Notes under the pieces: generated by a model | Seen by the model: the letters and a program-made list of their open reading frames with translations, nothing else | The model's database searches: none | Told to the model about the DNA's origin: nothing | Assembly (NCBI GenBank): GCA_043750125.1 | Contig: JAYVCD010000168.1 | Coordinates: 1 to 10,980 of the forward strand | Source of the DNA: Archangiaceae bacterium | Lineage (GTDB): Bacteria > Myxococcota > Myxococcia > Myxococcales > Myxococcaceae | Direction: 5' to 3' | DNA: 10,980 nt | Program-made: the position numbers and the translations under genes | Shown: positions 1 through 10,779 of the stretch, piece by piece | Position numbering within the stretch: position 1 is the first letter of the stretch | How the letters are laid out: every line of letters begins with the position of its first letter

Positions 1-98
1 CCGGGCTTTAGGGGGCTCGCGGTTTGATTCTTCCGTTGGCGCACGGTTGAAGCATACTGCCCGTCGCTGGAAACGCTCGAAGCGGATCAAAATCCCGG

Positions 99-617
99 GT
101 GCCCCTCTTGAACCTTCGCTGTCCCTTCATTCGGCCCGTCGCGACCGTGGCGCTGATGGCTGCTCTGCTGCTGCCCGGCCTCGCGCTCGCTTCGGGCTCG
201 TGGGCCGTTCCCCGCTTCACTCCCACCTGGGCCGAGCTCGAGCGCGACCTGCGCTTGCTCGGGCTGAAGAGCAGACCCATCGCCCGACGGCCCCGCCCGA
301 TTGCCCCGGCCGCCGTGGCCGCGACCGCCGTTCCCAACAGCAGCACCGAACCAGTCCCCGTTGCGGGCACCAGTCCCGGCGCTGCTGCTGCCGCCGGAGG
401 GTCCACCGCCGGCACTTCGAACGCTCCGGGCGGTACCGACACCGCGGGCGCCAACGTTCAATGCAAGTGCTCCGAGCCGCCGCCGCCTCCCAAGTGCCCC
501 GAGGTCGCTCCTGCAGCGCCGGCGGTCGCCGACCCGGTGAAGAAGAAAAAGAGACCGTCTGCGCCTGCCGACCCGAAGAAGCTCGATCGCAAGAAATACT
601 GGTGGCAGGAGAATTAA
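99..617 (+). CDS. Hypothetical exported Pro/Ala/Thr-rich protein with Cys motif and basic/aromatic C-terminus
   Basis: GTG at 99 (alternative in-frame ATG at 156) to TAA at 615-617. Signal-peptide-like segment VATVALMAALLLPGLALA, low-complexity linker, CKCSEPPPPPKC, and C-terminal KKLDRKKYWWQEN. GC-rich third positions in this frame. No family recognised. Confidence 0.7.
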   Translation: MPLLNLRCPFIRPVATVALMAALLLPGLALASGSWAVPRFTPTWAELERDLRLLGLKSRPIARRPRPIAPAAVAATAVPNSSTEPVPVAGTSPGAAAAAGGSTAGTSNAPGGTDTAGANVQCKCSEPPPPPKCPEVAPAAPAVADPVKKKKRPSAPADPKKLDRKKYWWQEN

Positions 618-1917
618 CCGCCGGGTTCCGTGGTGGTTTTTAGCGCTCGCTGCCTTCAGCCTGGCTGGAGCCGTCGGCTACACGTTTCTTCCCCTCGAGC
701 CCGGCCGCAGGGCGATCGCCTTCATCGCCCTTCAACTGTTGCTGGTCTTCCCCGCGTGGGCAGCGTGGAAGCTGCGGCCCACCGACGTGCTCGGCCTGGG
801 GTGGATCCTGGCAGCCGCGCTGGTCCTGCGCCTGGCGTGCCTGCCCGGCGATCTGATCTTCGAAAACGACGTCTTTCGCTACCTCTGGGACGCCCGGGTC
901 AGCGCCGAAGGAATCAACCCCTACCGGTACGCCCCCGCTGCCCCCGAGCTTGCCGCGCTGGTCGACGATTGGATTTTCCCCCAGATTCCCTACCGTCAGG
1001 TCCCCACCGCCTACCCCCCGCTGGCTCAGCTGCTGTTTGCATTCGCGCGGAGTCTGTTCGGCGAAAGCGTCTTCGGTCTTCAGGCCCTGATGATCGCCCT
1101 GGATTGCGGCACGGTCTGGGTGCTGTTCCGGTTGGGCCAGAAGCTCGACGCCCCGCGGGCCGCAGCCGTCTATGCCCTGCATCCGTTGGTGCTCAAAGAG
1201 TTCGCCCAGGCCGCCCACATCGACACCGCGGCCGTCCTCCTCGTCACCACCGCCGCCCTGCTCTTGACCGCCCGACGTCCGCGCTGGGCAGCCCTCGCTC
1301 TGGCCTTCGCCACGCTGGTCAAAATCTTTCCCGTATTCCTGCTGCCGGCCGTGGCGCGGCGGCTCGGGTGGCGCAACCTGGGGGTGTACGCCGCGGCCGT
1401 CGGCGCTCCGTTTCTGGGCCTCCTCGCGCTCGGGGTGTGGCCTTTCGGCGGGCTGCAGACTTTCAGCAGTTACTGGATTTTCAACCCCTCGCTCTACGAC
1501 CTGGTCGCGCGGACCCTGGGAATGGGGCTCCCGCCCGAGCAGGCCTTTGCGGTCGCGCGCCCGGTGTGCGGGTTGGTGCTGCTGGGCGCGCTCGCGGTGA
1601 TCTTCGCCCGCACCCGCCCGGCGGAAGATCGATCTGTCCTCGCGGGCATGCTCGCCTGCACGCTGGCGCTGCTGCTGTGCTCGCCGGCCGCGAACCCCTG
1701 GTACATCACCTGGCTGGTTCCCCTCGGGCTGGTGCTGGGCTCGGTGCCCGCGGTGGCGTTCACCTTCCTCGCCTCGCTGGCGTACGGTTTTTATCTGAAC
1801 GGGGAGGACCTTCCGTGGACGCGCCTGCTCGAGTACGGCCCGGTCTACGGACTGCTGGGGCTCGAGCTTTGGCGCCGCCGCAGCCGAGCCCAGGGCCCCG
1901 CGCGTCTGCCCACATGA
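613..1917 (+). CDS. GT-C fold multi-pass membrane glycosyltransferase (GT87/DUF2029, MptB-like); start uncertain, first canonical start is TTG 739
   Basis: Motifs ENDVFRYLWDA...GINPY, PTAYPPLAQLLF, YALHPL..E...AHID, ATLVKIFP, WIFNPSLY and NPWYITW, with many hydrophobic helices. The frame is open from 541 and encodes further TM-like sequence upstream of 739. Stop TGA at 1915-1917. Confidence 0.8.
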   Translation: MNRRVPWWFLALAAFSLAGAVGYTFLPLEPGRRAIAFIALQLLLVFPAWAAWKLRPTDVLGLGWILAAALVLRLACLPGDLIFENDVFRYLWDARVSAEGINPYRYAPAAPELAALVDDWIFPQIPYRQVPTAYPPLAQLLFAFARSLFGESVFGLQALMIALDCGTVWVLFRLGQKLDAPRAAAVYALHPLVLKEFAQAAHIDTAAVLLVTTAALLLTARRPRWAALALAFATLVKIFPVFLLPAVARRLGWRNLGVYAAAVGAPFLGLLALGVWPFGGLQTFSSYWIFNPSLYDLVARTLGMGLPPEQAFAVARPVCGLVLLGALAVIFARTRPAEDRSVLAGMLACTLALLLCSPAANPWYITWLVPLGLVLGSVPAVAFTFLASLAYGFYLNGEDLPWTRLLEYGPVYGLLGLELWRRRSRAQGPARLPT

Positions 1918-1952
1918 AGAAAGAAAAAACGTCGAGCGGATGATCCTCGACG
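1918..1952 (-). terminator. Possible intrinsic terminator facing the minus strand
   Basis: Perfect 7-bp inverted repeat CGTCGAG (1930-1936) / CTCGACG (1946-1952) with a 9-nt loop. The A-rich run 1918-1929 reads as a U-tract after the stem on the minus strand. Confidence 0.35.
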
Positions 1953-2035
1953 GAATGGTGTCGCGGGTGACAGCATGCCGGCGAGGGAAGAGGGTCTTGC
2001 GCCGTCCACGACCTGAAGCGACTGCAGGGGAAAGC

Positions 2036-3286
2036 ATGAAGAACGCAACCAGACTGCTCGCGGCGATTGTGCTGTTCGGATCTTTCGCGGCCTACGCGCA
2101 GGTCAGCGTCGAATACCGGCGCGCCCTGATGGCCCCCTTCCCCGAAGATCGCTGGGACGCGATCTTGAACCTGGCCCGCAGCGAAGGCGAGGTGCGCTGG
2201 TGGATGTGGAACGGGGACAAAAACACCAACGTCTGGGTCGATGAGTTCGCCTCGCGCCAGCTGTTTGAAGTCTACGGAATCAAGTTTCGCCGGGTCGGGG
2301 TCGGACACCCTTCGGTCTTCATGAAGCAGCTCGAAGACGACATGAAGAAGGGCGTGCCCCAGGGGCAAATCGACCTGGTCTGGATCAACGGCGAGAACTT
2401 CCGCGTCGCGCGCAAGAAGGACCTGCTCTGGGGTCCCTTCGCCCACCATCTTCCCAACTTCACCAAGTACGTCGACCCCGCGGCTCCCGACATCGCTTAC
2501 GACTTCGGCTTTCCGACCCAGGGTTTCGAGACCGTCTACAGCCGCGCCCAGCTGGTCTTCTATTACGACAGCGCGCGGGTGAAGGCCCCGCCGACCAACC
2601 TGGTGCAGCTGGTCCGTTGGGTGCGCGAACACCCCGGCCGCTTCACCTACCCCCAGGTCGACGACTACACCGGGTCGGCGTTCGTGCGGAACGTGTTCTT
2701 CCACACCAACACCACCGGCGGGTACCAGAGCTTCCTCAATGGCCCGTTCGACGCCGAGCTGATCTCGAACACCGCTTCGACGACCTGGGCCTACTTGAAC
2801 GGCCTCAAGCCGTACCTGTGGCGGCAGGGAAAGGAATACCCGAAGACGGTCAGCGAGCTCGATGAGCTGTTCCAGAAGGGCGAGATCGATTTCACCATCT
2901 CCTATTCGCCGCTGAAGGGCGCGAACATGATCAAGGTCAACGCCTGGCCCGACACCGTGCGCAGCTTCGTGCTCGCCGAGGGGACGCTGCGAAATGCCAA
3001 TTTCGTCGCCATCCCCTTCAACGCCAAGAACAAGGCGGCCGCGATGGTGCTGGCCAACCTGATCATGTCTCCCGAGTTTCAGATTCTTTCGGGGACGATG
3101 ATGGGCATCGACTACTCGAAGCTGAACGAGAAACAGCAGTCGGTCTACCAGAGCCGGGTCGGCGGTAGCCCTGCAGCACTGCCTCCCGTCGTGCTCGACC
3201 GCCAGGCGATTCCCGAAGTCCCCGAGGAATACGTGCTCGCGATCGAGTCGGGGTGGAAGAAAAACGTCGGCGCCCCCAAGCCCTGA
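2036..3286 (+). CDS. ynjB: ABC transporter periplasmic substrate-binding protein, YnjB family
   Basis: ATG at 2036 with AGGGGA upstream and signal peptide MKNATRLLAAIVLFGSFAAYA (preferred over the ORF-track start at 1940). YnjB-like motifs IDLVWINGENF, GPFAHHLPN, DFGFPTQGFE, AQLVFYYD, PGRFTYP..DYTGSAF and NFVAIPFNAKNKAAAMVLAN. Symbol denotes family, not proven orthology. Confidence 0.85.
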   Translation: MKNATRLLAAIVLFGSFAAYAQVSVEYRRALMAPFPEDRWDAILNLARSEGEVRWWMWNGDKNTNVWVDEFASRQLFEVYGIKFRRVGVGHPSVFMKQLEDDMKKGVPQGQIDLVWINGENFRVARKKDLLWGPFAHHLPNFTKYVDPAAPDIAYDFGFPTQGFETVYSRAQLVFYYDSARVKAPPTNLVQLVRWVREHPGRFTYPQVDDYTGSAFVRNVFFHTNTTGGYQSFLNGPFDAELISNTASTTWAYLNGLKPYLWRQGKEYPKTVSELDELFQKGEIDFTISYSPLKGANMIKVNAWPDTVRSFVLAEGTLRNANFVAIPFNAKNKAAAMVLANLIMSPEFQILSGTMMGIDYSKLNEKQQSVYQSRVGGSPAALPPVVLDRQAIPEVPEEYVLAIESGWKKNVGAPKP

Positions 3287-3359
3287 GCTCCAGCCCCTGC
3301 ACCCTCTGCCCGAAATTCCCGTCGTTCAGATCCGCGTTCACGGGGACGTACCGCCCGAT

Positions 3360-4178
3360 GTGACGGCGTCGTTCATCAGCTGCGGCCTGAAGCCCACCTC
3401 CCAGGCGATGCGGGCGCCTCGGGTGGTTCCGATCGCCGCGCTGGCCACCCAGGTCGACGACGGCACCCCGATCGTGGCCTTGTTCGACGGGAAGATTCAG
3501 CCGGAACATGCCGCGCTGCTGCGAGTGGCCCGGCCTCCGTTGCTGCTGGCTTGCCGGTCGGATGGCAAGCCCAGCCCCTGGGAACTGCGCGCCCTGGCGG
3601 TTCTGCTCGGGGCCGCGCCCCTGACGGCCATCGCCCCGGTGGCCTCGTTTGCCTGGAAGATCGGGGGAATGAACGACCTTCGGGCCCTGGCCCAGGAAGC
3701 CGAGGCGGCGGTGAGAAATGCCGGTGCGGGCTCGGCGGCCGCGGCGATCGTCGCCGACGTGATGTACGAGCTGGCCGCCAACGCCTTGTTCGATGCGCCC
3801 CACACCGACGAAGGTGTGCCGAAGTATGCGCATCAGCGCGGGGTCGAAGTGGAATTCGCAGCCACGGACGCTTGCCGGGCCACCGTGGCGGTTGCAGACG
3901 GCCGGGCCTACCTTTCGGCCACCGATCTGTTCGGGCGGCTCACCGCGGTCCCGATCGCAGCCATGCTCGAGGGCCTGGGCGCCAAGGCGCAGGTCAACAA
4001 ATCTGGAGGGGGAGCGGGGCTGGGTTTGCGCAGGGTGGTCGAGCAGTCGGACCTGTGGGCGGTTCGGGTCTCTCCCTCGGTCGTTACTGAAGTTCTGTGT
4101 GTCGTCGATCTGGGGGATACTCGGCGCCGCGCCGGCAGTCCCAAGTCCTTGTTGTTCACTGCCTTAGCGGGTCGATAG
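3360..4178 (+). CDS. GHKL/HATPase_c domain protein, RsbW/SpoIIAB-like (anti-sigma-type Ser kinase); start could be ATG 3408
   Basis: N-box-like YELAANALFDAP (~3765-3800), G1-like DLFG (3924) and G2 box GGGAGLGL (~4005-4028). No H-box dimerisation domain recognised. Ends 10 nt before the STAS-containing kinase gene. Confidence 0.75.
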   Translation: MTASFISCGLKPTSQAMRAPRVVPIAALATQVDDGTPIVALFDGKIQPEHAALLRVARPPLLLACRSDGKPSPWELRALAVLLGAAPLTAIAPVASFAWKIGGMNDLRALAQEAEAAVRNAGAGSAAAAIVADVMYELAANALFDAPHTDEGVPKYAHQRGVEVEFAATDACRATVAVADGRAYLSATDLFGRLTAVPIAAMLEGLGAKAQVNKSGGGAGLGLRRVVEQSDLWAVRVSPSVVTEVLCVVDLGDTRRRAGSPKSLLFTALAGR

Positions 4179-4188
4179 AGAAAAAAAG

Positions 4189-7100
4189 GTGGCAACAGTC
4201 CGCAGCTCTCATGCTCTGGCAGAACGGTCAATTGTCGGCCCGGTGACGCACGTCCGCATTTCCGGAATCATCGACGAGACCTTTTCGCCCAAGACCATCA
4301 GCGCGGACCTGACCGGCCACGTCATTCTCGACCTCGGGCGGCTCGAACGAATCAGCTCTTTCGGGGTGCGCCAGTGGATGGAATTTACCCGCACCCTTCC
4401 GCCCGGCGCGACCGATTTGTACGTGGTCAATGCGCCTCCGATCGTGGTCGACCAATTGGCGATGGTCGACGGCTTCGCCGGGGTGGCGCGGATCCTCTCG
4501 ATGCTCGCGCCGTACGTGTGCGACGCCTGTGAAGAAGAGCGGGTGCGCCTCATCGACCTGCGCACCGATTCTGCGATCATCGCGGCCAACGAGGCTCCCG
4601 CCCACGTCTGTGGAGTCTGCGGCACCAAGCTGCGCTTCAACGATTCACCGGCCCAATACTTCGCCCACGCCCGACTTCAACCGCTGGTCGACGTAGCGCC
4701 GGCAGTCGACGGATACCTGAACAGCCTGCGGCCGGTGGAAACCGATCTGCCGCAGCAGCACCTGAAAATCGTCGAGGGCGACATCAGCTTCATTCGCCTC
4801 GCCGGAAAGCTCGACCGCGACCTCAACGTCCGGCGCCTCGCCGGAGGCCTGCAGGGACGGGTCGCCTTCGACTTCGCCCACGTCAACGGCATCGACGACG
4901 GTGGCACCACCCAGCTCGCGGCGATGCTCAACGCGGCCGCCAAAGAAGCGGTGGTGTTCTTGTGGCGCGTGCCTCTGTTCATCCTCAAGGCACTGTCCAG
5001 AATTCAGCTGGAAGGAAAAATCGGTCTCGCCACCCTCTGGCTGACCTACGAGTGCCGAAACTGCGGCCAGCGGTTGCCCCAAAGGATGTTGGCTCACGAG
5101 CAGGCGACCAGCCTGGGCGGCGGCGAAATGGAAGAGCGCCCCTGCGGCCTGTGCGGCGGGGCGGCCCGCGCTCCTTCACTGCAGGCCGTTCAGTCCCTGT
5201 TGTTGCGGCTCGCGGTCCACAACGCCCCGTTCGACGAGCTCGACCTGCTCGAGCCGCGCGCGCTCAGCCAGTCGCTCAACAGCATCGCCGGGGTCAAGGC
5301 CGAGCACACCCCGAGCAAGTCGCCGGGAGAACTGCTCGAACAGGTCGTCAGCGAAGGAGTCGCCGGGCCGAAGCTTCAGATTCTCAAGCGCATCGGCCAG
5401 GGCGGCATGGCCGAAGTCTTCCTCGCGCGTCAGCTGGGTCTGAAGGGTTTCGAGAAGTACGTGGTGCTGAAGAAGATTCTTCCCCAGTTCGCCGGGTCTC
5501 AGCACTTCATCGACATGCTCTTCGCCGAGGCCCGTTCCTCCGCGCGCCTGACCCACCCGAACATCGTGCAGATCTACGACGTGGGCGAGCTGCAGGGCAG
5601 CGCCTACATCACGATGGAGCACGTGCGCGGGCCCGACCTGCGGCGGCTGATGGTGCTGTTGAGCAAGGCGAGCCTGAGCCTTCCGCTCGAGCACTCGCTG
5701 CGCATCGTCTCGGAAATTGCCGCCGGCTTGAACTACGCGCACAGCTACGTGGATCCCACCGGGGCTCCCCACCCCGTGATTCACCGCGACGTGAGCCCCC
5801 ACAACATTTTGATCTCGCTCGATGGCGCGATCAAACTGTCGGACTTCGGCATCGCCAAAGCGCTGGGCGAAAGCGAGACCACCCAGCCGGGAATGATCAA
5901 GGGCAAGGTCGCCTACATTCCTCCCGAGTCGGTGAAGGGCGAGCCGGTCGATGGCCGCGGCGACGTCTTTTCCCTCGGCGTCGTCCTCTTCGAGCTGCTG
6001 ACCGGAAAGACTCCTTTCCGCCGCGAGAGCGACGTTGCGACCCTGCAGGCGATCGTCACGATGCCCCCGCCGAACCCGGTGCTGCTCAACCCCAAGATTC
6101 ACCCCAGCATCGCAGCGGTGATGCTCAAGGCTTTGGAAAAGCAGCCCGAGAACCGGTTCCAGACGGCGGGCGAGTTTCGCCTCGAGATCGAAGAGGTGAT
6201 GAGCAAGAACGGCCTGCGTTCGGCACCCGACCGGGTCGCCGACTACTTCAAGGAAAAGCTGGGCGACAACGTGGTCGAGTTCCGGATCGCCGCGCCGGTG
6301 AACCTGGCCACTCCCAGCGGCTCGCCCCCCAAACCCGGGCACGTGAGCAAGACCGCCGTCCCCCCGCCGCTGCCTTCTCCTGAGGCCCCGGGGACCAACA
6401 GTCCCGGAACCAACGACAGCATCTCGCTGGTCTTCGAAGAGTTGTTGCCCGGACACATCGACGAATCGACGAAGACTTCCGCCCCCAACCTGAACGCGGT
6501 CGGGTTGCCCACCCCGGCGCCGATCGTGAAGAGCTCGGCCCCCAGTCCGGTTCCGAAGAATCGGCAGGTCCCCTGGATGTCGGCCGCCTCGAGCCAGAAA
6601 CTGGTGGCGCTCAAAGCGGCGATCGAGGCGCCGCCGGCCGCCGCACATCCGCTCGACGAGCCCGACACCGGCCCCGGGCTGATCACGACGGTGAAGAAGA
6701 AGCGAGGGTGGATTGGTGCCGCGGCAGCCGCCGGCCTGGCCTTCCTCGCAATCGTCGGAGTGGTGCGCGCCACCACCGGCCTGGTGGAAGTCGTCAACCT
6801 CGCCGCCGATGAACGGGTCTACCTCAACGGGCTGCGCGTCGACGCCACCCAGATTTCTCCCGACAAAAGCGGCGAGATGGTGCTGGCGATCGCCAAAGAT
6901 GGAATTCTGAAGCGGTTCGGAAAGATCAAACGCTCGCGCAGCATCGATTCAGACTCGCTGCCCCTGGCCCGCGCCGACCTGAAAGATCGCGCCAACCTCT
7001 GGGTGGGCAGTGACCCCAAGGGCTGCGAAGTGATGGTCGACGGAGCGCACACCCTGACCACCACTCCGCTGGCGATGGAAATCAAGGCGGGTCAGGAGCT

Positions 7101-7209
7101 GCTGGTGGAAGTGATGTGCCCCGGCTTGCCTCGTCGCACCCAGTGGGTGCTGGCGGCGCCCGGGCAGGAAGTGCAGGTCTCGGCCCGGATGTTCGACGAG
7201 CACCGCTGA
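4189..7209 (+). CDS. Membrane Ser/Thr (Hanks) protein kinase with two N-terminal STAS-like plus Zn-ribbon modules and a C-terminal PEGA-like region
   Basis: STAS-like VRISGIIDE..LDLGRLERISSFGVRQW followed by CDAC/CGVC. Second copy IRLAGKLDR..FDFAHVNGIDDGG followed by CRNC/CGLC. Kinase motifs GQGGMAEV, VVLK, HRDVSPHN (5782), DFG (5842), YIPPE, DVFSLG. Pro-rich linker, KKKR then TM helix (6709-6765), and PEGA-like LWVGSDPKGCEVMVDG..TTP. Confidence 0.92.
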   Translation: MATVRSSHALAERSIVGPVTHVRISGIIDETFSPKTISADLTGHVILDLGRLERISSFGVRQWMEFTRTLPPGATDLYVVNAPPIVVDQLAMVDGFAGVARILSMLAPYVCDACEEERVRLIDLRTDSAIIAANEAPAHVCGVCGTKLRFNDSPAQYFAHARLQPLVDVAPAVDGYLNSLRPVETDLPQQHLKIVEGDISFIRLAGKLDRDLNVRRLAGGLQGRVAFDFAHVNGIDDGGTTQLAAMLNAAAKEAVVFLWRVPLFILKALSRIQLEGKIGLATLWLTYECRNCGQRLPQRMLAHEQATSLGGGEMEERPCGLCGGAARAPSLQAVQSLLLRLAVHNAPFDELDLLEPRALSQSLNSIAGVKAEHTPSKSPGELLEQVVSEGVAGPKLQILKRIGQGGMAEVFLARQLGLKGFEKYVVLKKILPQFAGSQHFIDMLFAEARSSARLTHPNIVQIYDVGELQGSAYITMEHVRGPDLRRLMVLLSKASLSLPLEHSLRIVSEIAAGLNYAHSYVDPTGAPHPVIHRDVSPHNILISLDGAIKLSDFGIAKALGESETTQPGMIKGKVAYIPPESVKGEPVDGRGDVFSLGVVLFELLTGKTPFRRESDVATLQAIVTMPPPNPVLLNPKIHPSIAAVMLKALEKQPENRFQTAGEFRLEIEEVMSKNGLRSAPDRVADYFKEKLGDNVVEFRIAAPVNLATPSGSPPKPGHVSKTAVPPPLPSPEAPGTNSPGTNDSISLVFEELLPGHIDESTKTSAPNLNAVGLPTPAPIVKSSAPSPVPKNRQVPWMSAASSQKLVALKAAIEAPPAAAHPLDEPDTGPGLITTVKKKRGWIGAAAAAGLAFLAIVGVVRATTGLVEVVNLAADERVYLNGLRVDATQISPDKSGEMVLAIAKDGILKRFGKIKRSRSIDSDSLPLARADLKDRANLWVGSDPKGCEVMVDGAHTLTTTPLAMEIKAGQELLVEVMCPGLPRRTQWVLAAPGQEVQVSARMFDEHR

Positions 7210-7217
7210 AGCGGCGA

Positions 7218-8075
7218 TTACTTCGGGGTGACGGGCAGTGCCTTGTCGCTGGACCATTCCCAGAACGAGCCGTCGTAGTTGGCAACCTTCTTCGCGCCCG
7301 CGACCTTCAAAGCGAGGAACGCAAAGCCCGAGCGCACTCCGCCGGTGCAGTAGACCACCAGCGATTCGTCAACAGAGATCCCCCGAGCGCTCAAGAGGCT
7401 CTGCAGCTCAGGCTTCGGCAGCAGCGTCCCGTCCTTCGCGAAGAACTGTTTCCAGGGAAGGCTAATCGCTCCGGGAATGTGACCGCCCCGGACTTCTCCG
7501 TACTTGATTGCGCCTTCGAACTCATCGCGGTCGCGAACGTCGAGCAGCTTCACTTTGTTTGCCGCAAGGGCGGCGGTCAGCGTGACCTTGTCGATGCGGG
7601 CCGAGAGATCGGTTCCGGCGCGGAACTTCTTGTTCGGCCGCTGCGGACCTTCGGTGGTGACAGGAAAGTTGGCGCGCTTCCAGGCCGCGAGGCCCCCATC
7701 GAGCACGCTCACTTTTTGATGGCCGAGGTACGAAAGCGTCCAAAACAGCCGCCCCTCTTCCCCGAAGCCGTCCTGCCCCGCTCCGTAGACGACGACCCAA
7801 CTGTCCGAAGGAATACCGCGGGACGTGAGGATCTCGGCCATCTCAGCCGACGAGCGAGCCAATGGGCTCTTGGGCATCTGGGCCAGCTCGATCCACGGGA
7901 CGGAGATTGCGCCGGGAAGGTGACCCTCTTCGTACATTTGCCAGTCTCGGGCATCGACGATCACCGCACGCGCCGCCTGCGCATGCAGCGCCTCGGGGCG
8001 AATCATCAGGGAAGGAACCGGCTTGGCGGCTGAGGAAATCAGCATCGCCCACTGCACGAGGAAGATGAGCTTCAC
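7218..8075 (-). CDS. Tandem-domain rhodanese/sulfurtransferase with N-terminal signal peptide (YnjE/SseA-like)
   Basis: GTG start with GGAGG RBS (8080-8084 on the minus strand). Motifs VIVDAR..YEEGHLPGA, VLDGGLAAW, LLDVR..EF.G, GHIPGA, active-site loop YCTGGVRS and YDGSFWEW. Hydrophobic N-terminus MKLIFLVQWAMLISSAA. Confidence 0.9.
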   Translation of the reverse strand: MKLIFLVQWAMLISSAAKPVPSLMIRPEALHAQAARAVIVDARDWQMYEEGHLPGAISVPWIELAQMPKSPLARSSAEMAEILTSRGIPSDSWVVVYGAGQDGFGEEGRLFWTLSYLGHQKVSVLDGGLAAWKRANFPVTTEGPQRPNKKFRAGTDLSARIDKVTLTAALAANKVKLLDVRDRDEFEGAIKYGEVRGGHIPGAISLPWKQFFAKDGTLLPKPELQSLLSARGISVDESLVVYCTGGVRSGFAFLALKVAGAKKVANYDGSFWEWSSDKALPVTPK

Positions 8076-8246: not shown

Positions 8247-9716
8247 ATGAGCGCGCCTTCTCCAAGCGACGACGTCCAGCCCGGTCAAAGAATTGGCCGG
8301 TACACCGTGCTGCGTCGGCTGGGCAGCGGAGGAATGGCCGAGGTCTACCTGGCGCGCCATGAGGGCCCCAAAAACTTCTCGAAGGTGGTGGTCCTGAAGC
8401 AAGTGCTGCCGCGCCTGGCGAAAAACGAGAAATTCATTCAGATGTTCCTCGATGAAGGCCGGCTGGCGGCGCGGCTTTCCCACCCCAACATCGCGCAGAC
8501 TTTCGAGTTGGGAGAGCACGAGGGGCGCTTTCACATCGCGATGGAGTACGTCCCCGGCGAGTCGCTGTCGAAGGTGGTGAAGAAGGCCCGACGGGAAGGG
8601 TTGGCGCTGCCCCTGGGCACCGTGCTGAGGGTCGCCGTGCAGCTGCTCGAAGCGCTCGACTACACCCACGATTTAAAGGGCGAGCGGGGCGAGTGGCTTC
8701 GGGTGGTGCATCGCGACGTGAGCCCCACCAACGTGGTCCTGACCTACTACGGCGCAGTGAAGCTGCTCGACTTCGGAATCGCCCGCGCCGCCAGCCACGA
8801 GCACCACACCCAGGTCGGGGCCGTGAAAGGCAAGGGCGGCTACATGGCGCCAGAGCAGGCCCGCGCCCAGCACGTCGACCAGCGGGCCGACATCTACGCG
8901 GTCGGTGCTCTGCTGTACCTGCTCACGACCGGGGTGGGACCGTTTGACGACGCCGGCGACGTCTTCGCGATGATGCGCGCGGCGGTCGAATCGCGCTTCC
9001 CTCGCCCCAGCGAGCGCAACCGCAACGTCAATCCTCAGCTGGAACAAATCATTCTCAAGGCGATGGCCGGGCGCCCCGACGATCGCTACCCCACCGCGCG
9101 ACTGATGCTCGCCGACCTCGAGTCTTGTGCCACGTCGCAGCGCCTGTTCGCCGGGGCTCAAGAGCTTGCTGGGCTGATGCGCACGCTGTTCGGAGAGCGC
9201 GCGGACCTCGCTCACGCCGCGTGGGACCAGGTGCCCGACGAAGAGCTGATGGAAAAGGTCGCCGAGAGCTTCAGCGATCGCGACGACGACGAGCTGATGG
9301 GGGTGCCGACGATGCGGGCGCGACGCCCCCGGGTGCAACCCCTTCCGACGCCCCGGCCAGAGCCGTTCAATCGTGCTCCCTCAGGAGACCGAGCGGTGCG
9401 AAGCGTGGCGACGGCGCCGGCGGTTCCCATCGCGTCGCTGAAGGGGGCGTTCGACGACGACGACCACGCGACCGAAATGGTGATCTCGACCCAGTTCATC
9501 AGCAACAAACTGAATCTGAAGCCCAACGCGATCACCCTGGCCCCGACCACCCTGGGCCTGCCGCCCGATGCGACGGGCCCCGGAGCCACCGGCGAGTCGA
9601 CCCGAACGACTCCGCCCCGAGGACGGCCCAACTCGCTCTCGAAGCCGCGGCTGATGGTCCTGGTGACCGGCGGAGTCTTGTTGGGCACTGCGCTGGCCTG
9701 GGTGCTGCTGCACTGA
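8247..9716 (+). CDS. Ser/Thr (Hanks) protein kinase with C-terminal membrane anchor
   Basis: Motifs GSGGMAEV, VVLK, FLDEGR, HRDVSPTN, DFG, YMAPE, DIYAVG and DDRY. Acidic and Pro/Thr-rich linker. Terminal hydrophobic helix LMVLVTGGVLLGTALAWVLLH. Confidence 0.92.
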   Translation: MSAPSPSDDVQPGQRIGRYTVLRRLGSGGMAEVYLARHEGPKNFSKVVVLKQVLPRLAKNEKFIQMFLDEGRLAARLSHPNIAQTFELGEHEGRFHIAMEYVPGESLSKVVKKARREGLALPLGTVLRVAVQLLEALDYTHDLKGERGEWLRVVHRDVSPTNVVLTYYGAVKLLDFGIARAASHEHHTQVGAVKGKGGYMAPEQARAQHVDQRADIYAVGALLYLLTTGVGPFDDAGDVFAMMRAAVESRFPRPSERNRNVNPQLEQIILKAMAGRPDDRYPTARLMLADLESCATSQRLFAGAQELAGLMRTLFGERADLAHAAWDQVPDEELMEKVAESFSDRDDDELMGVPTMRARRPRVQPLPTPRPEPFNRAPSGDRAVRSVATAPAVPIASLKGAFDDDDHATEMVISTQFISNKLNLKPNAITLAPTTLGLPPDATGPGATGESTRTTPPRGRPNSLSKPRLMVLVTGGVLLGTALAWVLLH

Positions 9717-9723
9717 AACGCGA

Positions 9724-10770
9724 TCAGCCGGAAGTCGCGCCCCCGCAGCTCGAGCCCGCGCCGGCGGTGCAGCCGAAGCAATGGCGGCCGACCCGAATCG
9801 AACGCGCGGCCAGCGCCGCTGAATCAAAGTCCCGGATGTGGTGCGGAGCACCCGCCGCCAACCCCAGCTCGAGCATCTGGTTGAAGTCGCAATCGTACAG
9901 CTGCCCGTCCCACCCCACCGAGAGCATCGTCCGGCACATCACTCCGGCGGCGGCCTGGGGGTTGAATGAGGTGACCAGCTTTTCCATGTAGCCTTCGAGG
10001 TTGCCAGTCTCGAGCAGCCAGTCGAGGTACCGCCCGATCGGCATGTTGGTGAGGCAGTACAGCGCATCGAAGGACACTCCGTGCAGACGCATCAGCTCGC
10101 GCTTCCACTCTCGTTCCAGCGAGGCCTGGCCTCCGGGAAGAAAGGCGCCCACGGGGTTGGTCACCAGAGTGAGGGTGAGGCCCGACTTCCCGTCGCCGTA
10201 GCCGAGCGCATTGAGCCGCTGCAGCGCGGCGATCGACTTTTCGTAGACCCCTTCGCCGCGCTGACGATCCGTGCTCAGGGCGCGGTAGTGGGGAAGGGAG
10301 CAGACCAGCTCGACCCGCTGGGCGGCGAAGAACTCGGGAAGATCCCAATGAGGCGCGGTCTGCAGAATGGTGAGGTTGCAGCGGTCGATGACTTTCGCCC
10401 CGCGCGCCACGCACTGCTCGACGAGCCAACGAAAGTGGGGGTTCATCTCGGGAGCGCCGCCGGTCAGATCGACGGTTGAAATCCGGTGACGATCGAGCTC
10501 GGCCAGGCAGTGTTCCATCGTCTGGCGGGTCATGATTTCGCGCCGATCGGGCCCCGCGTCGACGTGGCAGTGGCGACAGGTCTGGTTGCACAGCTTGCCG
10601 ATGTTGATCTGCAGCACGTCCAGCGCCATCGGCTTCAGCGGCCAGAGCCCCGCCTGCTCGAGCGCGACCTCGAACTCAGGCGACAGGCGCAGCCTGGCAA
10701 GCGAGCTCAGCTGCGAAGCGGGCGCCGCGAGCGGACTGCCTCGGGCTGAAAGCGAGGGAGGCATCGACAT
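9724..10770 (-). CDS. arsS: Arsenosugar biosynthesis radical SAM protein ArsS family (Cys form), DUF3641-type C-terminus; start 10773, 10770 or 10764
   Basis: LQINIGKLCNQTCRHCHVDAGP (CxxxCxxC), DLTGGAPEMNPHFR, IDRCNLT, SLPHY, NMPIGR, MCR..LYDCDFNQML and the terminal HCFGCTAGAGSSCGG signature. Directly follows its usual partner, the CMD-like gene. Confidence 0.9.
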   Translation of the reverse strand: MSMPPSLSARGSPLAAPASQLSSLARLRLSPEFEVALEQAGLWPLKPMALDVLQINIGKLCNQTCRHCHVDAGPDRREIMTRQTMEHCLAELDRHRISTVDLTGGAPEMNPHFRWLVEQCVARGAKVIDRCNLTILQTAPHWDLPEFFAAQRVELVCSLPHYRALSTDRQRGEGVYEKSIAALQRLNALGYGDGKSGLTLTLVTNPVGAFLPGGQASLEREWKRELMRLHGVSFDALYCLTNMPIGRYLDWLLETGNLEGYMEKLVTSFNPQAAAGVMCRTMLSVGWDGQLYDCDFNQMLELGLAAGAPHHIRDFDSAALAARSIRVGRHCFGCTAGAGSSCGGATSG

Positions 10771-10779
10771 CAAAACTTT

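Follow-up and report, generated by a model that had tools for sequence, protein, structure and literature searches.

RsbW and SpoIIAB are GHKL kinases that bind and phosphorylate the STAS anti-anti-sigma factors RsbV and SpoIIAA. Here we analyze two adjacent genes on a 10,980-nucleotide stretch of DNA from an Archangiaceae bacterium (contig JAYVCD010000168.1; the whole stretch is called the window below), one encoding a GHKL protein of 272 amino acids (aa) and the other a receptor-type Ser/Thr kinase of the Hanks class of 1006 aa, which begins with two STAS-like modules. We lean, though only slightly, toward reading the pair as a hard-wired partner-switch-like module in which a Hanks receptor kinase stands in place of the sigma factor. 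The pair is similar to SpoIIAB-SpoIIAA and RsbW-RsbV of Bacillus (PDB 1l0o, 1tid, 1th8 and 6m36): these are the best fold matches for both proteins, there is no H-box, the genes are adjacent, and in a predicted complex the N-box Glu and the ATP lid lie opposite a Ser at the start of a STAS helix. Unlike the Bacillus pairs, it has no linked sigma factor or PP2C phosphatase; its STAS domain is doubled, is interrupted by four-Cys zinc ribbons and forms one chain with a membrane Hanks kinase; its GHKL protein is longer, by a 92-aa N-terminal domain and by an insert that follows the N box; and its GHKL and STAS regions fall short of the Pfam and NCBIfam thresholds. None of the 9 window open reading frames (ORFs) scanned with Pfam belongs to a sigma-factor or PP2C/SpoIIE family, in line with an earlier sequence-only reading of the window, and across eight larger loci that carry the pair no further gene of the window is kept. 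We therefore describe the system as partner-switch-like rather than as an anti-sigma module.

SiaC and SypA are free-standing, single-domain STAS proteins, and the output of their systems is a diguanylate cyclase or the control of biofilms, whereas the STAS modules of the window are built into a Hanks kinase. The SiaB-SiaC (PDB 6kko) and SypE-SypA (PMC10120452) systems share with the window pair an RsbW-type kinase, a STAS partner and an output other than a sigma factor, and SiaB is the third-best fold match of the window GHKL protein. In CapK-CapS (Chambers et al., EMBO J 2026, PMC13373217), according to the passages on its mechanism, an RsbW-like kinase phosphorylates a STAS-type effector, the oligomeric state changes and the output is not a sigma factor; CapS is described there as a DNA-binding repressor and CapK as being activated by single-stranded DNA. 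By description, CapK-CapS and the window pair both combine an RsbW-like kinase with a STAS domain fused to an output. The fused effector in the window, unlike CapS, is a receptor Ser/Thr kinase.

PknD reportedly phosphorylates a homolog of an anti-anti-sigma factor, to go by the title of a 2007 report by Greenstein. A review table lists the anti-anti-sigma factor homolog Rv0516c among the PknD targets (PMC6213207), which is an earlier link between a Hanks kinase and a STAS protein, there as a substrate; the passages on PknD name no dedicated GHKL partner, zinc ribbons or mechanism. STAS domains (COG1366) fused to eukaryote-like kinases were noted in Sorangium cellulosum in 2010 (PMC2887360), and the passages on these fusions mention no dedicated GHKL partner, zinc ribbons or mechanism, so that their kinship with the window family is by description only. 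LvrC of Leptospira (PDB 9qih, PMC13269768) is similar to the window GHKL protein in that an N-terminal alpha/beta domain is followed by an RsbW-like GHKL domain, and the passages on it describe an anti-sigma factor with a true receiver that is phosphorylated by a histidine kinase. The N-terminal domain of the window GHKL protein, unlike that of LvrC, is shorter and has no Response_reg match. The chain of Rv1364c of Mycobacterium tuberculosis also has a STAS domain. Like the window kinase, Rv1364c (PDB 3ke6) places a partner-switch component in a multidomain protein, but it fuses a phosphatase and a kinase in one chain and has no Hanks kinase. The sequence-only reading knew of no characterized system with the architecture of the window pair; set beside the Sorangium fusions and CapK-CapS, as their sources describe them in part, that statement was too strong. 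Literature searches found no mention of MXAN_4557 or MXAN_4558 of Myxococcus xanthus and, at the level of titles and abstracts, no paper on the pair, on zinc-ribbon STAS domains or on the GHKL family; kinome lists or supplements may include the architecture.

The GHKL protein and the receptor kinase

The GHKL protein has no Pfam match at E ≤ 0.1 and no NCBIfam match at E ≤ 1, a genome scan with PF13581 (HATPase_c_2) does not pick it up, and PDB sequence searches with the protein, with a profile of its family and with a profile of the STAS region returned chance-level matches only. Besides the window protein itself, 88 homologs of similar length were found (89 matches at E ≤ 0.001 among 8000 scored candidates), and the named ones are myxobacterial “hypothetical proteins”, including MXAN_4558 of M. 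xanthus DK1622. The invariant columns in an alignment of 32 homologs are E137, N141, A142, A146 and P147, then D189 and G192, and finally G216 to G222, which are exactly the N, G1 and G2 boxes that the sequence-only reading had described. The same boxes can be followed through 130 representatives of the wider family, namely those of at least 200 aa among 150 listed out of 2094 profile matches (Table 1). This conservation argues for a working nucleotide site, and judged by its motifs the protein is probably a catalytically competent serine kinase.

The AlphaFold2 model of the GHKL protein, made on the homolog alignment (local confidence pLDDT 92.1; global confidence pTM 0.90), contains neither a dimerization and histidine phosphotransfer (DHp) domain nor an H-box helix, and the absence of an H-box had been noted before. 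An exhaustive structural comparison of aa ~91-253 gave as the six best matches SpoIIAB (Z 12.4; root-mean-square deviation 2.7 over 135 aligned residues), UsfX (11.4), SiaB (10.5), RsbW (10.2), LvrC (10.1, over aa 93-253) and the RsbW domain of Rv1364c (9.4), all of which are of the RsbW class; the best catalytic and ATP-binding domain of a histidine kinase reached Z 6.1. Foldseek agrees on an RsbW-class fold (E = 6.5e-5). A profile search over 1.84 billion representatives found 2094 GHKL relatives at E ≤ 0.001 and 46 at E ≤ 1e-30. The distant relative P0330 (profile E = 1.1e-22) just passes HATPase_c_2 (27.5 bits against a cut-off of 27.4), and the same model matches below its cut-off in three more of the 10 relatives scanned and in a paralog at locus L042 (26.2 bits; others 22.5 and 20.0). 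These matches add a sequence link to the fold-based kinship with RsbW-type kinases. On its predicted structure, the 272-aa protein is a GHKL protein of the RsbW/SpoIIAB class, divergent and outside the library models.

In the 1006-aa protein, Pfam recognizes the kinase domain (Pkinase, E = 2.2e-40), which has a G-loop GQGGMAEV at 403, K428, HRD at 532, DFG at 552 and PPE at 578. The STAS matches stay below the Pfam cut-offs (STAS at aa 42-92, 19.5 bits against 22.6; STAS_2 at aa 221-257, 20.7 bits), and three of eight orthologs pass the STAS cut-off (24.5, 27.9 and 31.3 bits). A model of aa 1-380, built on an 18-sequence alignment (pLDDT 82.5; pTM 0.79), repeats the same order of strands and helices twice. 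With VIA-align, module 1 matches the STAS domain of YchM (Z 11.9), a Haliangium antagonist (11.7), SpoIIAA (11.7) and RsbV (11.5), and the top five Foldseek matches of the STAS region are SpoIIAA chains. Since these structural alignments use aa ~5-105 and then a helix at 171-179, the intervening four-Cys stretch is best seen as an inserted zinc ribbon, a feature on which the sequence-only reading touched only briefly. Module 2, which the fold search barely covered, is a sequence duplicate of module 1 (BLASTP E = 2e-8). The Lys/Arg stretch KKKR before the transmembrane (TM) helix places the N-terminus, and with it the STAS modules, in the cytoplasm. The two STAS-like domains, the complete Ser/Thr kinase and the TM helix of the sequence-only reading are thus borne out; its PEGA-like tail is upheld only as a weak stretch that scores below the PF08308 cut-off. 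Among eight orthologs, one (P0138) passes that cut-off (22.7 bits), one comes near (18.2 bits) and six have no match at E ≤ 0.05. One ortholog of the STAS kinase (P0168) is labeled “Comamonas sp. JC664”, while all other named orthologs are myxobacterial; its source assembly is probably mislabeled or contaminated.

Module 1 contains an invariant motif, R54-I-S56-S57-F-G59, and the position of Ser57 is one that we take to be equivalent to the phosphorylated Ser58 of SpoIIAA and to the site in RsbV. Of 31 distant STAS modules that stand alone or come first, every one has Ser in the Ser57 column and 30 keep all four zinc-ribbon Cys, and at position 56 either S, T or N is found. Module 2 has no phosphorylatable Ser or Thr at the Ser-Ser position, which reads Asp-Asp here and E/D-x in orthologs.

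The N-terminal domain of the GHKL protein has family-conserved residues of its own (G44, P59, L62-A64, R66, W74 and E75). Foldseek aligns the GHKL protein over its full length to the REC-GHKL protein LvrC. Response_reg matches one paralog at 16.8 bits against a cut-off of 30.2, and an Asp at the end of a strand in the window protein (Asp43) is not invariant. An ESM Atlas search with aa 1-95 gave no usable feature match; on the structure side it returned small alpha/beta folds (rhodanese-like, RLAN, psi subunit), which stayed below the bar for naming. From these weak leads, the domain is possibly a truncated or degenerate receiver-like domain. It is also possible that the protein begins upstream of the GTG at 3360: the GHKL family profile match begins at nucleotide 3330, and the peptide read in frame ahead of 3360 is similar to the N-terminus of a homolog at 70% identity (P0006). 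No ATG, GTG or TTG lies in frame within 3297-3359, where the only candidates are CTG (3297 and 3306), ATT (3315) and ATC (3330), and the close homologs P0004 and P0005 are called with an ATG near 3360. The true start may therefore lie between 3297 and 3330, at a non-canonical codon.

Conservation of the pair and its wider family

The pair is kept together as a pair across many myxobacteria. The window's genome (89.4% complete) has one copy of each family, side by side, and the GHKL profile matches in 92 of 301 sampled genomes of the phylum and in 70 of 115 of the window's own family (tallies that include one unpublished genome, G196). In each of the 29 non-self loci returned, the GHKL gene is directly followed by the STAS-kinase gene on the same strand, and the two are adjacent in all eight loci of ~16-20 kb, which represent eight genera and of which three come from further genomes. 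Taken together, the loci examined come from 32 other myxobacterial genomes, and in all 32 the pair is adjacent and co-directional. Apart from the pair, none of the window genes recurs in the eight larger loci, except that the genes for the solute-binding protein (SBP), the rhodanese and the radical-SAM protein are also present in genome G282.

More distant relatives show the same association. We scanned 20 loci around distant GHKL matches in other myxobacterial families, in six frames, with the GHKL and STAS-zinc-ribbon profiles, and a zinc-ribbon STAS gene is the direct neighbor of 14 of the 22 distant GHKL matches, in either order. Giant proteins of 1520-1590 aa that end in a GHKL domain have a convergent, adjacent zinc-ribbon STAS gene in 4 of 4 cases (Table 1). 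One of these giants was scanned and has an N-terminal PilZ domain, the remainder matching no Pfam family. HMMER with its default filters misses the C-terminal GHKL domain of the giants, which is found with --max at E values of 1e-16 to 3.5e-19, and other weak GHKL paralogs may be missed likewise. Because there are only 4-6 zinc-ribbon STAS matches per genome in five of the paralog genomes (6.4-11.6 Mb), the pairing is not due to chance. The co-occurrence of the two families, on which the sequence-only reading depended, is therefore found both in the orthologous loci and among distant paralogs.

The STAS-zinc-ribbon module takes several forms: standalone (~150 aa), doubled and joined to a Hanks kinase, fused to PDZ, set between FIST and PDZ, and fused to TPR. 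Other neighbors at the distant loci include PilZ, REC, PAS-GGDEF and histidine kinase genes. Two loci encode large proteins that combine FIST_N/FIST_C sensor domains with a zinc-ribbon STAS module and end in a PDZ domain (L040, 31-5550, + strand; L043, 817-4221, - strand); a GHKL paralog adjoins the first and lies ~2.8 kb from the second. At another locus (L035, 4410-6867, - strand), three genes stand in a row, for a PAS-GGDEF protein, a free-standing zinc-ribbon STAS protein and a GHKL paralog. This layout recalls SiaB/SiaC, a system that controls a diguanylate cyclase.

Direct fusions are found as well. Among 142 representatives (P0212-P0353), two consist of a STAS-zinc-ribbon module followed by a GHKL domain (P0231 and P0326) and one of a GHKL domain followed by STAS (P0237), so that both arrangements for which a survey of the family had been proposed, neighboring genes and fusions, exist. 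A protein from a metagenome-assembled genome of Planctomycetota (P0333) fuses a dCache-HAMP-GAF-SpoIIE phosphatase to a GHKL domain, which ties the GHKL family to partner-switch phosphatases. Fusions on metagenome contigs can be artifacts of gene calling, and we use them as supporting evidence only. Far from being an isolated hybrid, the window pair belongs to a large family of GHKL and zinc-ribbon STAS pairs that has no annotation.

Gene order and predictions are the whole basis of the link between the two proteins, and the genes could in principle be mere operon neighbors with no physical or regulatory contact. We consider this highly improbable: adjacency is kept in 32 of 32 genomes while the other neighbors change, distant paralogs are repeatedly paired even though the zinc-ribbon STAS module is rare in each genome, fusions exist, and the predicted complex described below passes its controls.

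The predicted complex and a possible mechanism

The complex of the GHKL protein with aa 1-370 of the kinase was predicted with an own alignment for each protein. The interface score ipSAE was 0.79 (runs of 0.79, 0.81 and 0.79) against 0.19 for the best control, and the controls were passed; in the calibration of the tool, 58 of the 80 solved complexes reach that mark, as do 2 of the 110 mismatched pairs, counts that are only a rough guide here because own alignments were used. The runs have at least 91% of their contacts in common, and the partner pLDDT is at least 81. In the predicted complex, STAS1 docks on the GHKL protein and STAS2 does not. The residue pairs of lowest error join S56/S57 to GHKL residues 133, 136, E137, 140, G221, G222 and R225, and on the side of the G2 lid GHKL residues 220-222 and 225 contact STAS1. 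The prediction thus sets the Ser at the acceptor position against the N-box Glu and the ATP lid. On the STAS side, conservation in the ortholog alignment reaches 90% or more for 19 of 28 interface residues, compared with 83 of 190 residues across module 1, which is a modest enrichment in a shallow alignment. The folds, the co-occurrence and the predicted complex together lend computational support to the earlier proposal of a partner switch whose STAS target lies inside a receptor kinase.

These results suggest the following mechanism for the partner-switch-like module. The GHKL protein would be a dedicated kinase and binding partner that docks on STAS1 of the receptor kinase in an ATP-dependent manner, and it would most likely phosphorylate Ser57 of STAS1. 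As its STAS target is built into the receptor kinase, the GHKL protein would, by binding and phosphorylation, alter the conformation or the oligomeric state of the cytoplasmic part. Once STAS1 is docked and Ser57 phosphorylated, the tandem STAS region would hold the kinase domains differently, and the output of the receptor kinase would be set in this way, with the extracytoplasmic tail supplying a second input. Resetting the switch would need a phosphatase, and an unlinked PP2C/SpoIIE protein could be involved.

Several observations weigh against this mechanism. The canonical G1 box is D-x-G-x-G, and that of the window family reads D-x-F-G. The PP2C/SpoIIE phosphatase of a classical partner switch is not linked to the pair in the window or as a conserved third gene in the eight larger loci, and the SpoIIE-type genes of the window's genome (two clear and one marginal) are on other contigs. 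Eight of the 22 distant GHKL paralogs have no zinc-ribbon STAS gene as a direct neighbor; in two of these eight such a gene lies 2.7-2.8 kb away, one with a clear intervening gene and the other with conflicting gene calls. The two halves of the pair can also be found apart. At one locus (L033, 4630-7552, - strand) one of these eight GHKL paralogs lies directly 3′ of a Hanks kinase whose PEGA domain is clear and which has no STAS; this hints at a link between GHKL proteins and Hanks kinases that is independent of a fused STAS domain, and genome G282 has a second STAS-zinc-ribbon Hanks kinase, 35% identical to the window protein, with no GHKL gene beside it in its locus (L058, 13091-15031, - strand). 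Besides the rough calibration given above, the predicted complex may pass partly by recall of the solved SpoIIAB-SpoIIAA and RsbW-RsbV complexes, and would then indicate likeness rather than binding.

The first of these points bear on the possibility that the GHKL protein binds ATP and STAS1 without phosphotransfer and acts as a nucleotide-dependent clamp or scaffold, for example by joining two receptor kinases. The departure of the G1 box from the canonical form and the lack, in the window and the eight loci, of a linked phosphatase to reset a phosphorylated STAS domain are both in keeping with such a role. There are also MlaB-type STAS structures among the fold matches, and MlaB functions independently of phosphorylation. 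Pure binding, however, would not require the putative catalytic Glu137 and the Ser57 that are both invariant in very distant members, and we regard the clamp as improbable.

Signaling might also flow in the reverse direction. The receptor Hanks kinase would then sense an extracytoplasmic cue through its PEGA-like tail and control the availability of its own STAS1, for example by phosphorylation in cis or by conformation; STAS1 would be a membrane-anchored antagonist that captures or releases the GHKL protein, and the output would be the targets that the free GHKL protein reaches with its GHKL face or its N-terminal domain. The partner-switching component of classical systems is their GHKL protein, and the window GHKL protein has a conserved extra N-terminal domain. 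Rv0516c, a homolog of anti-anti-sigma factors, is listed among the PknD targets (PMC6213207, review table), and the REC-GHKL protein LvrC is described as an anti-sigma factor in the passages on it (PMC13269768). The GHKL paralog beside a Hanks-PEGA kinase without STAS (L033) and the STAS-zinc-ribbon kinase without a GHKL gene of its own (G282) would fit as well. The invariant catalytic motifs of the GHKL protein and the Ser at its predicted active site, on the other hand, fit phosphorylation from GHKL to STAS at least as well; no third partner is conserved beside the pair in the eight loci, and no sigma family is present among the 9 window ORFs, though a sigma partner may be encoded at a distance. 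We therefore consider the reversed direction rather unlikely, though well short of improbable. It is not mutually exclusive with a GHKL protein that acts on the receptor kinase, and the two can coexist.

Layout of the window and implications

The GHKL and STAS-kinase genes are the last of five co-directional genes on the + strand (ORF list; Table 1), of which the three upstream ones overlap at their ends. As had been noted from sequence, the GHKL gene ends 10 nucleotides before the kinase gene, a spacing that suggests an operon in which translation may be coupled. Over the whole window, consensus scans for promoters (0 found, 0.6 expected) and terminators (10 found, 9.1 expected) are at chance level and carry no information on the operon. 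A search for sequencing runs that contain 3300-5400 of the window listed no RNA run; it found five DNA runs from two studies, two of which may be sources of this DNA. Downstream, the rhodanese gene and the radical-SAM/DUF3641 gene bracket a second Hanks kinase, which lies ~1 kb 3′ of the STAS kinase. The SBP, rhodanese and radical-SAM genes were considered as members of the system and rejected, being common only to the closest relative, G282, among the eight loci. The second Hanks kinase was likewise rejected, as it gave kinase-domain cross-matches only and no distinct ortholog beside the pair in those loci.

Table 1. Coordinates of the GHKL and STAS-kinase genes, their parts and neighboring genes in the window, and of giant GHKL genes at other loci
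Feature	Position	Strand	Remarks
Gene of no Pfam or NCBIfam family	2..643	+	Open at 5′ end; faint Cys-rich TNFR-like match
Gene of no Pfam or NCBIfam family	630..1943	+	
Solute-binding protein gene	1940..3286	+	SBP_bac_8
GHKL gene	3360..4178	+	272 aa; GTG start; M. xanthus ortholog MXAN_4558
N-terminal alpha/beta domain, aa 1-92	3360..3635	+	AlphaFold2 secondary structure; separate small domain
GHKL (Bergerat-fold) domain, aa 93-253	3636..4118	+	VIA-align and Foldseek
N box, E137-x3-N141-A ... D145-A-P147	3768..3800	+	Invariant; E137 in 130/130 and N141 in 129/130 representatives
G1 box, D189-x-F-G192	3924..3935	+	D189 in 128/130 and G192 in 130/130 representatives
G2 box / ATP lid, G216-G-G-A-G-L-G222	4005..4025	+	G217-G222 in 114-129 of 130 (128-129 except L221)
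Intergenic gap, 10 nucleotides	4179..4188	.	Orthologous pairs also closely spaced, same strand
STAS-STAS-Hanks kinase-TM-PEGA-like receptor kinase gene	4189..7209	+	1006 aa; GTG start; M. xanthus DK1622 ortholog ABF90050.1
STAS module 1, aa 5-179	4201..4725	+	Zinc ribbon inserted before last helix
Ser56-Ser57, candidate phospho-acceptor	4354..4359	+	Both invariant in 18 orthologs
Zinc ribbon 1: C111, C114, C141, C144	4519..4620	+	Cys invariant in 18-sequence alignment
STAS module 2, aa 190-367	4756..5289	+	Degenerate duplicate of module 1; same secondary-structure order
Zinc ribbon 2: C289, C292, C319, C322	5053..5154	+	Cys invariant
Hanks-type Ser/Thr kinase domain, aa 397-658	5377..6162	+	Pkinase; all catalytic motifs present
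Pro/Ala/Ser-rich low-complexity juxtamembrane linker, aa ~690-835	6256..6693	+	Composition
Single TM helix, aa 841-859	6709..6765	+	Hydropathy scan; KKKR precedes
Extracytoplasmic tail, aa 860-1006 (~147 aa)	6766..7206	+	Weak PEGA-like stretch
PEGA-like stretch, aa 936-970	6994..7098	+	14.8 bits against PF08308 cut-off of 20.8
Two-domain rhodanese gene	7218..8075	-	
Second Hanks Ser/Thr kinase gene	8247..9716	+	489 aa; no STAS modules
Radical-SAM/DUF3641 gene	9724..10773	-	
Giant GHKL protein, locus L048	6062..10624	-	
Giant GHKL protein, locus L049	1285..6027	+	
Giant GHKL protein, locus L050	1936..6672	+	
Giant GHKL protein, locus L051	1862..6433	+	

Myxobacteria encode some of the largest sets of eukaryote-like kinases among bacteria, and the control of most of these kinases is obscure. 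With the pair, there is a concrete, testable proposal for how one receptor kinase is controlled, and this kinase is conserved in the Myxococcaceae, among them the tractable M. xanthus DK1622 (MXAN_4558 and ABF90050.1). Should phosphorylation from GHKL to STAS gate the Hanks kinase, it would directly connect two superfamilies of kinases that usually count as separate signaling systems. The ~2,000 sequence clusters of the GHKL family lie outside the current Pfam and NCBIfam models, and since these libraries do not name the family, partner-switching modules are under-counted in the genome annotations of these organisms. More tentatively, as an idea that we think possible but would not bet on, the GHKL protein with its degenerate receiver-like head and the zinc-ribbon STAS module could form a general plug-in regulator in Myxococcota and a few other lineages. 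The window pair would then be a case in which two Ser/Thr kinase superfamilies regulate each other in one complex, and a redox or metal input might enter through the zinc ribbons. If this is true, GHKL-STAS switching would be a third general signaling layer in these bacteria, beside the two-component and Hanks systems.

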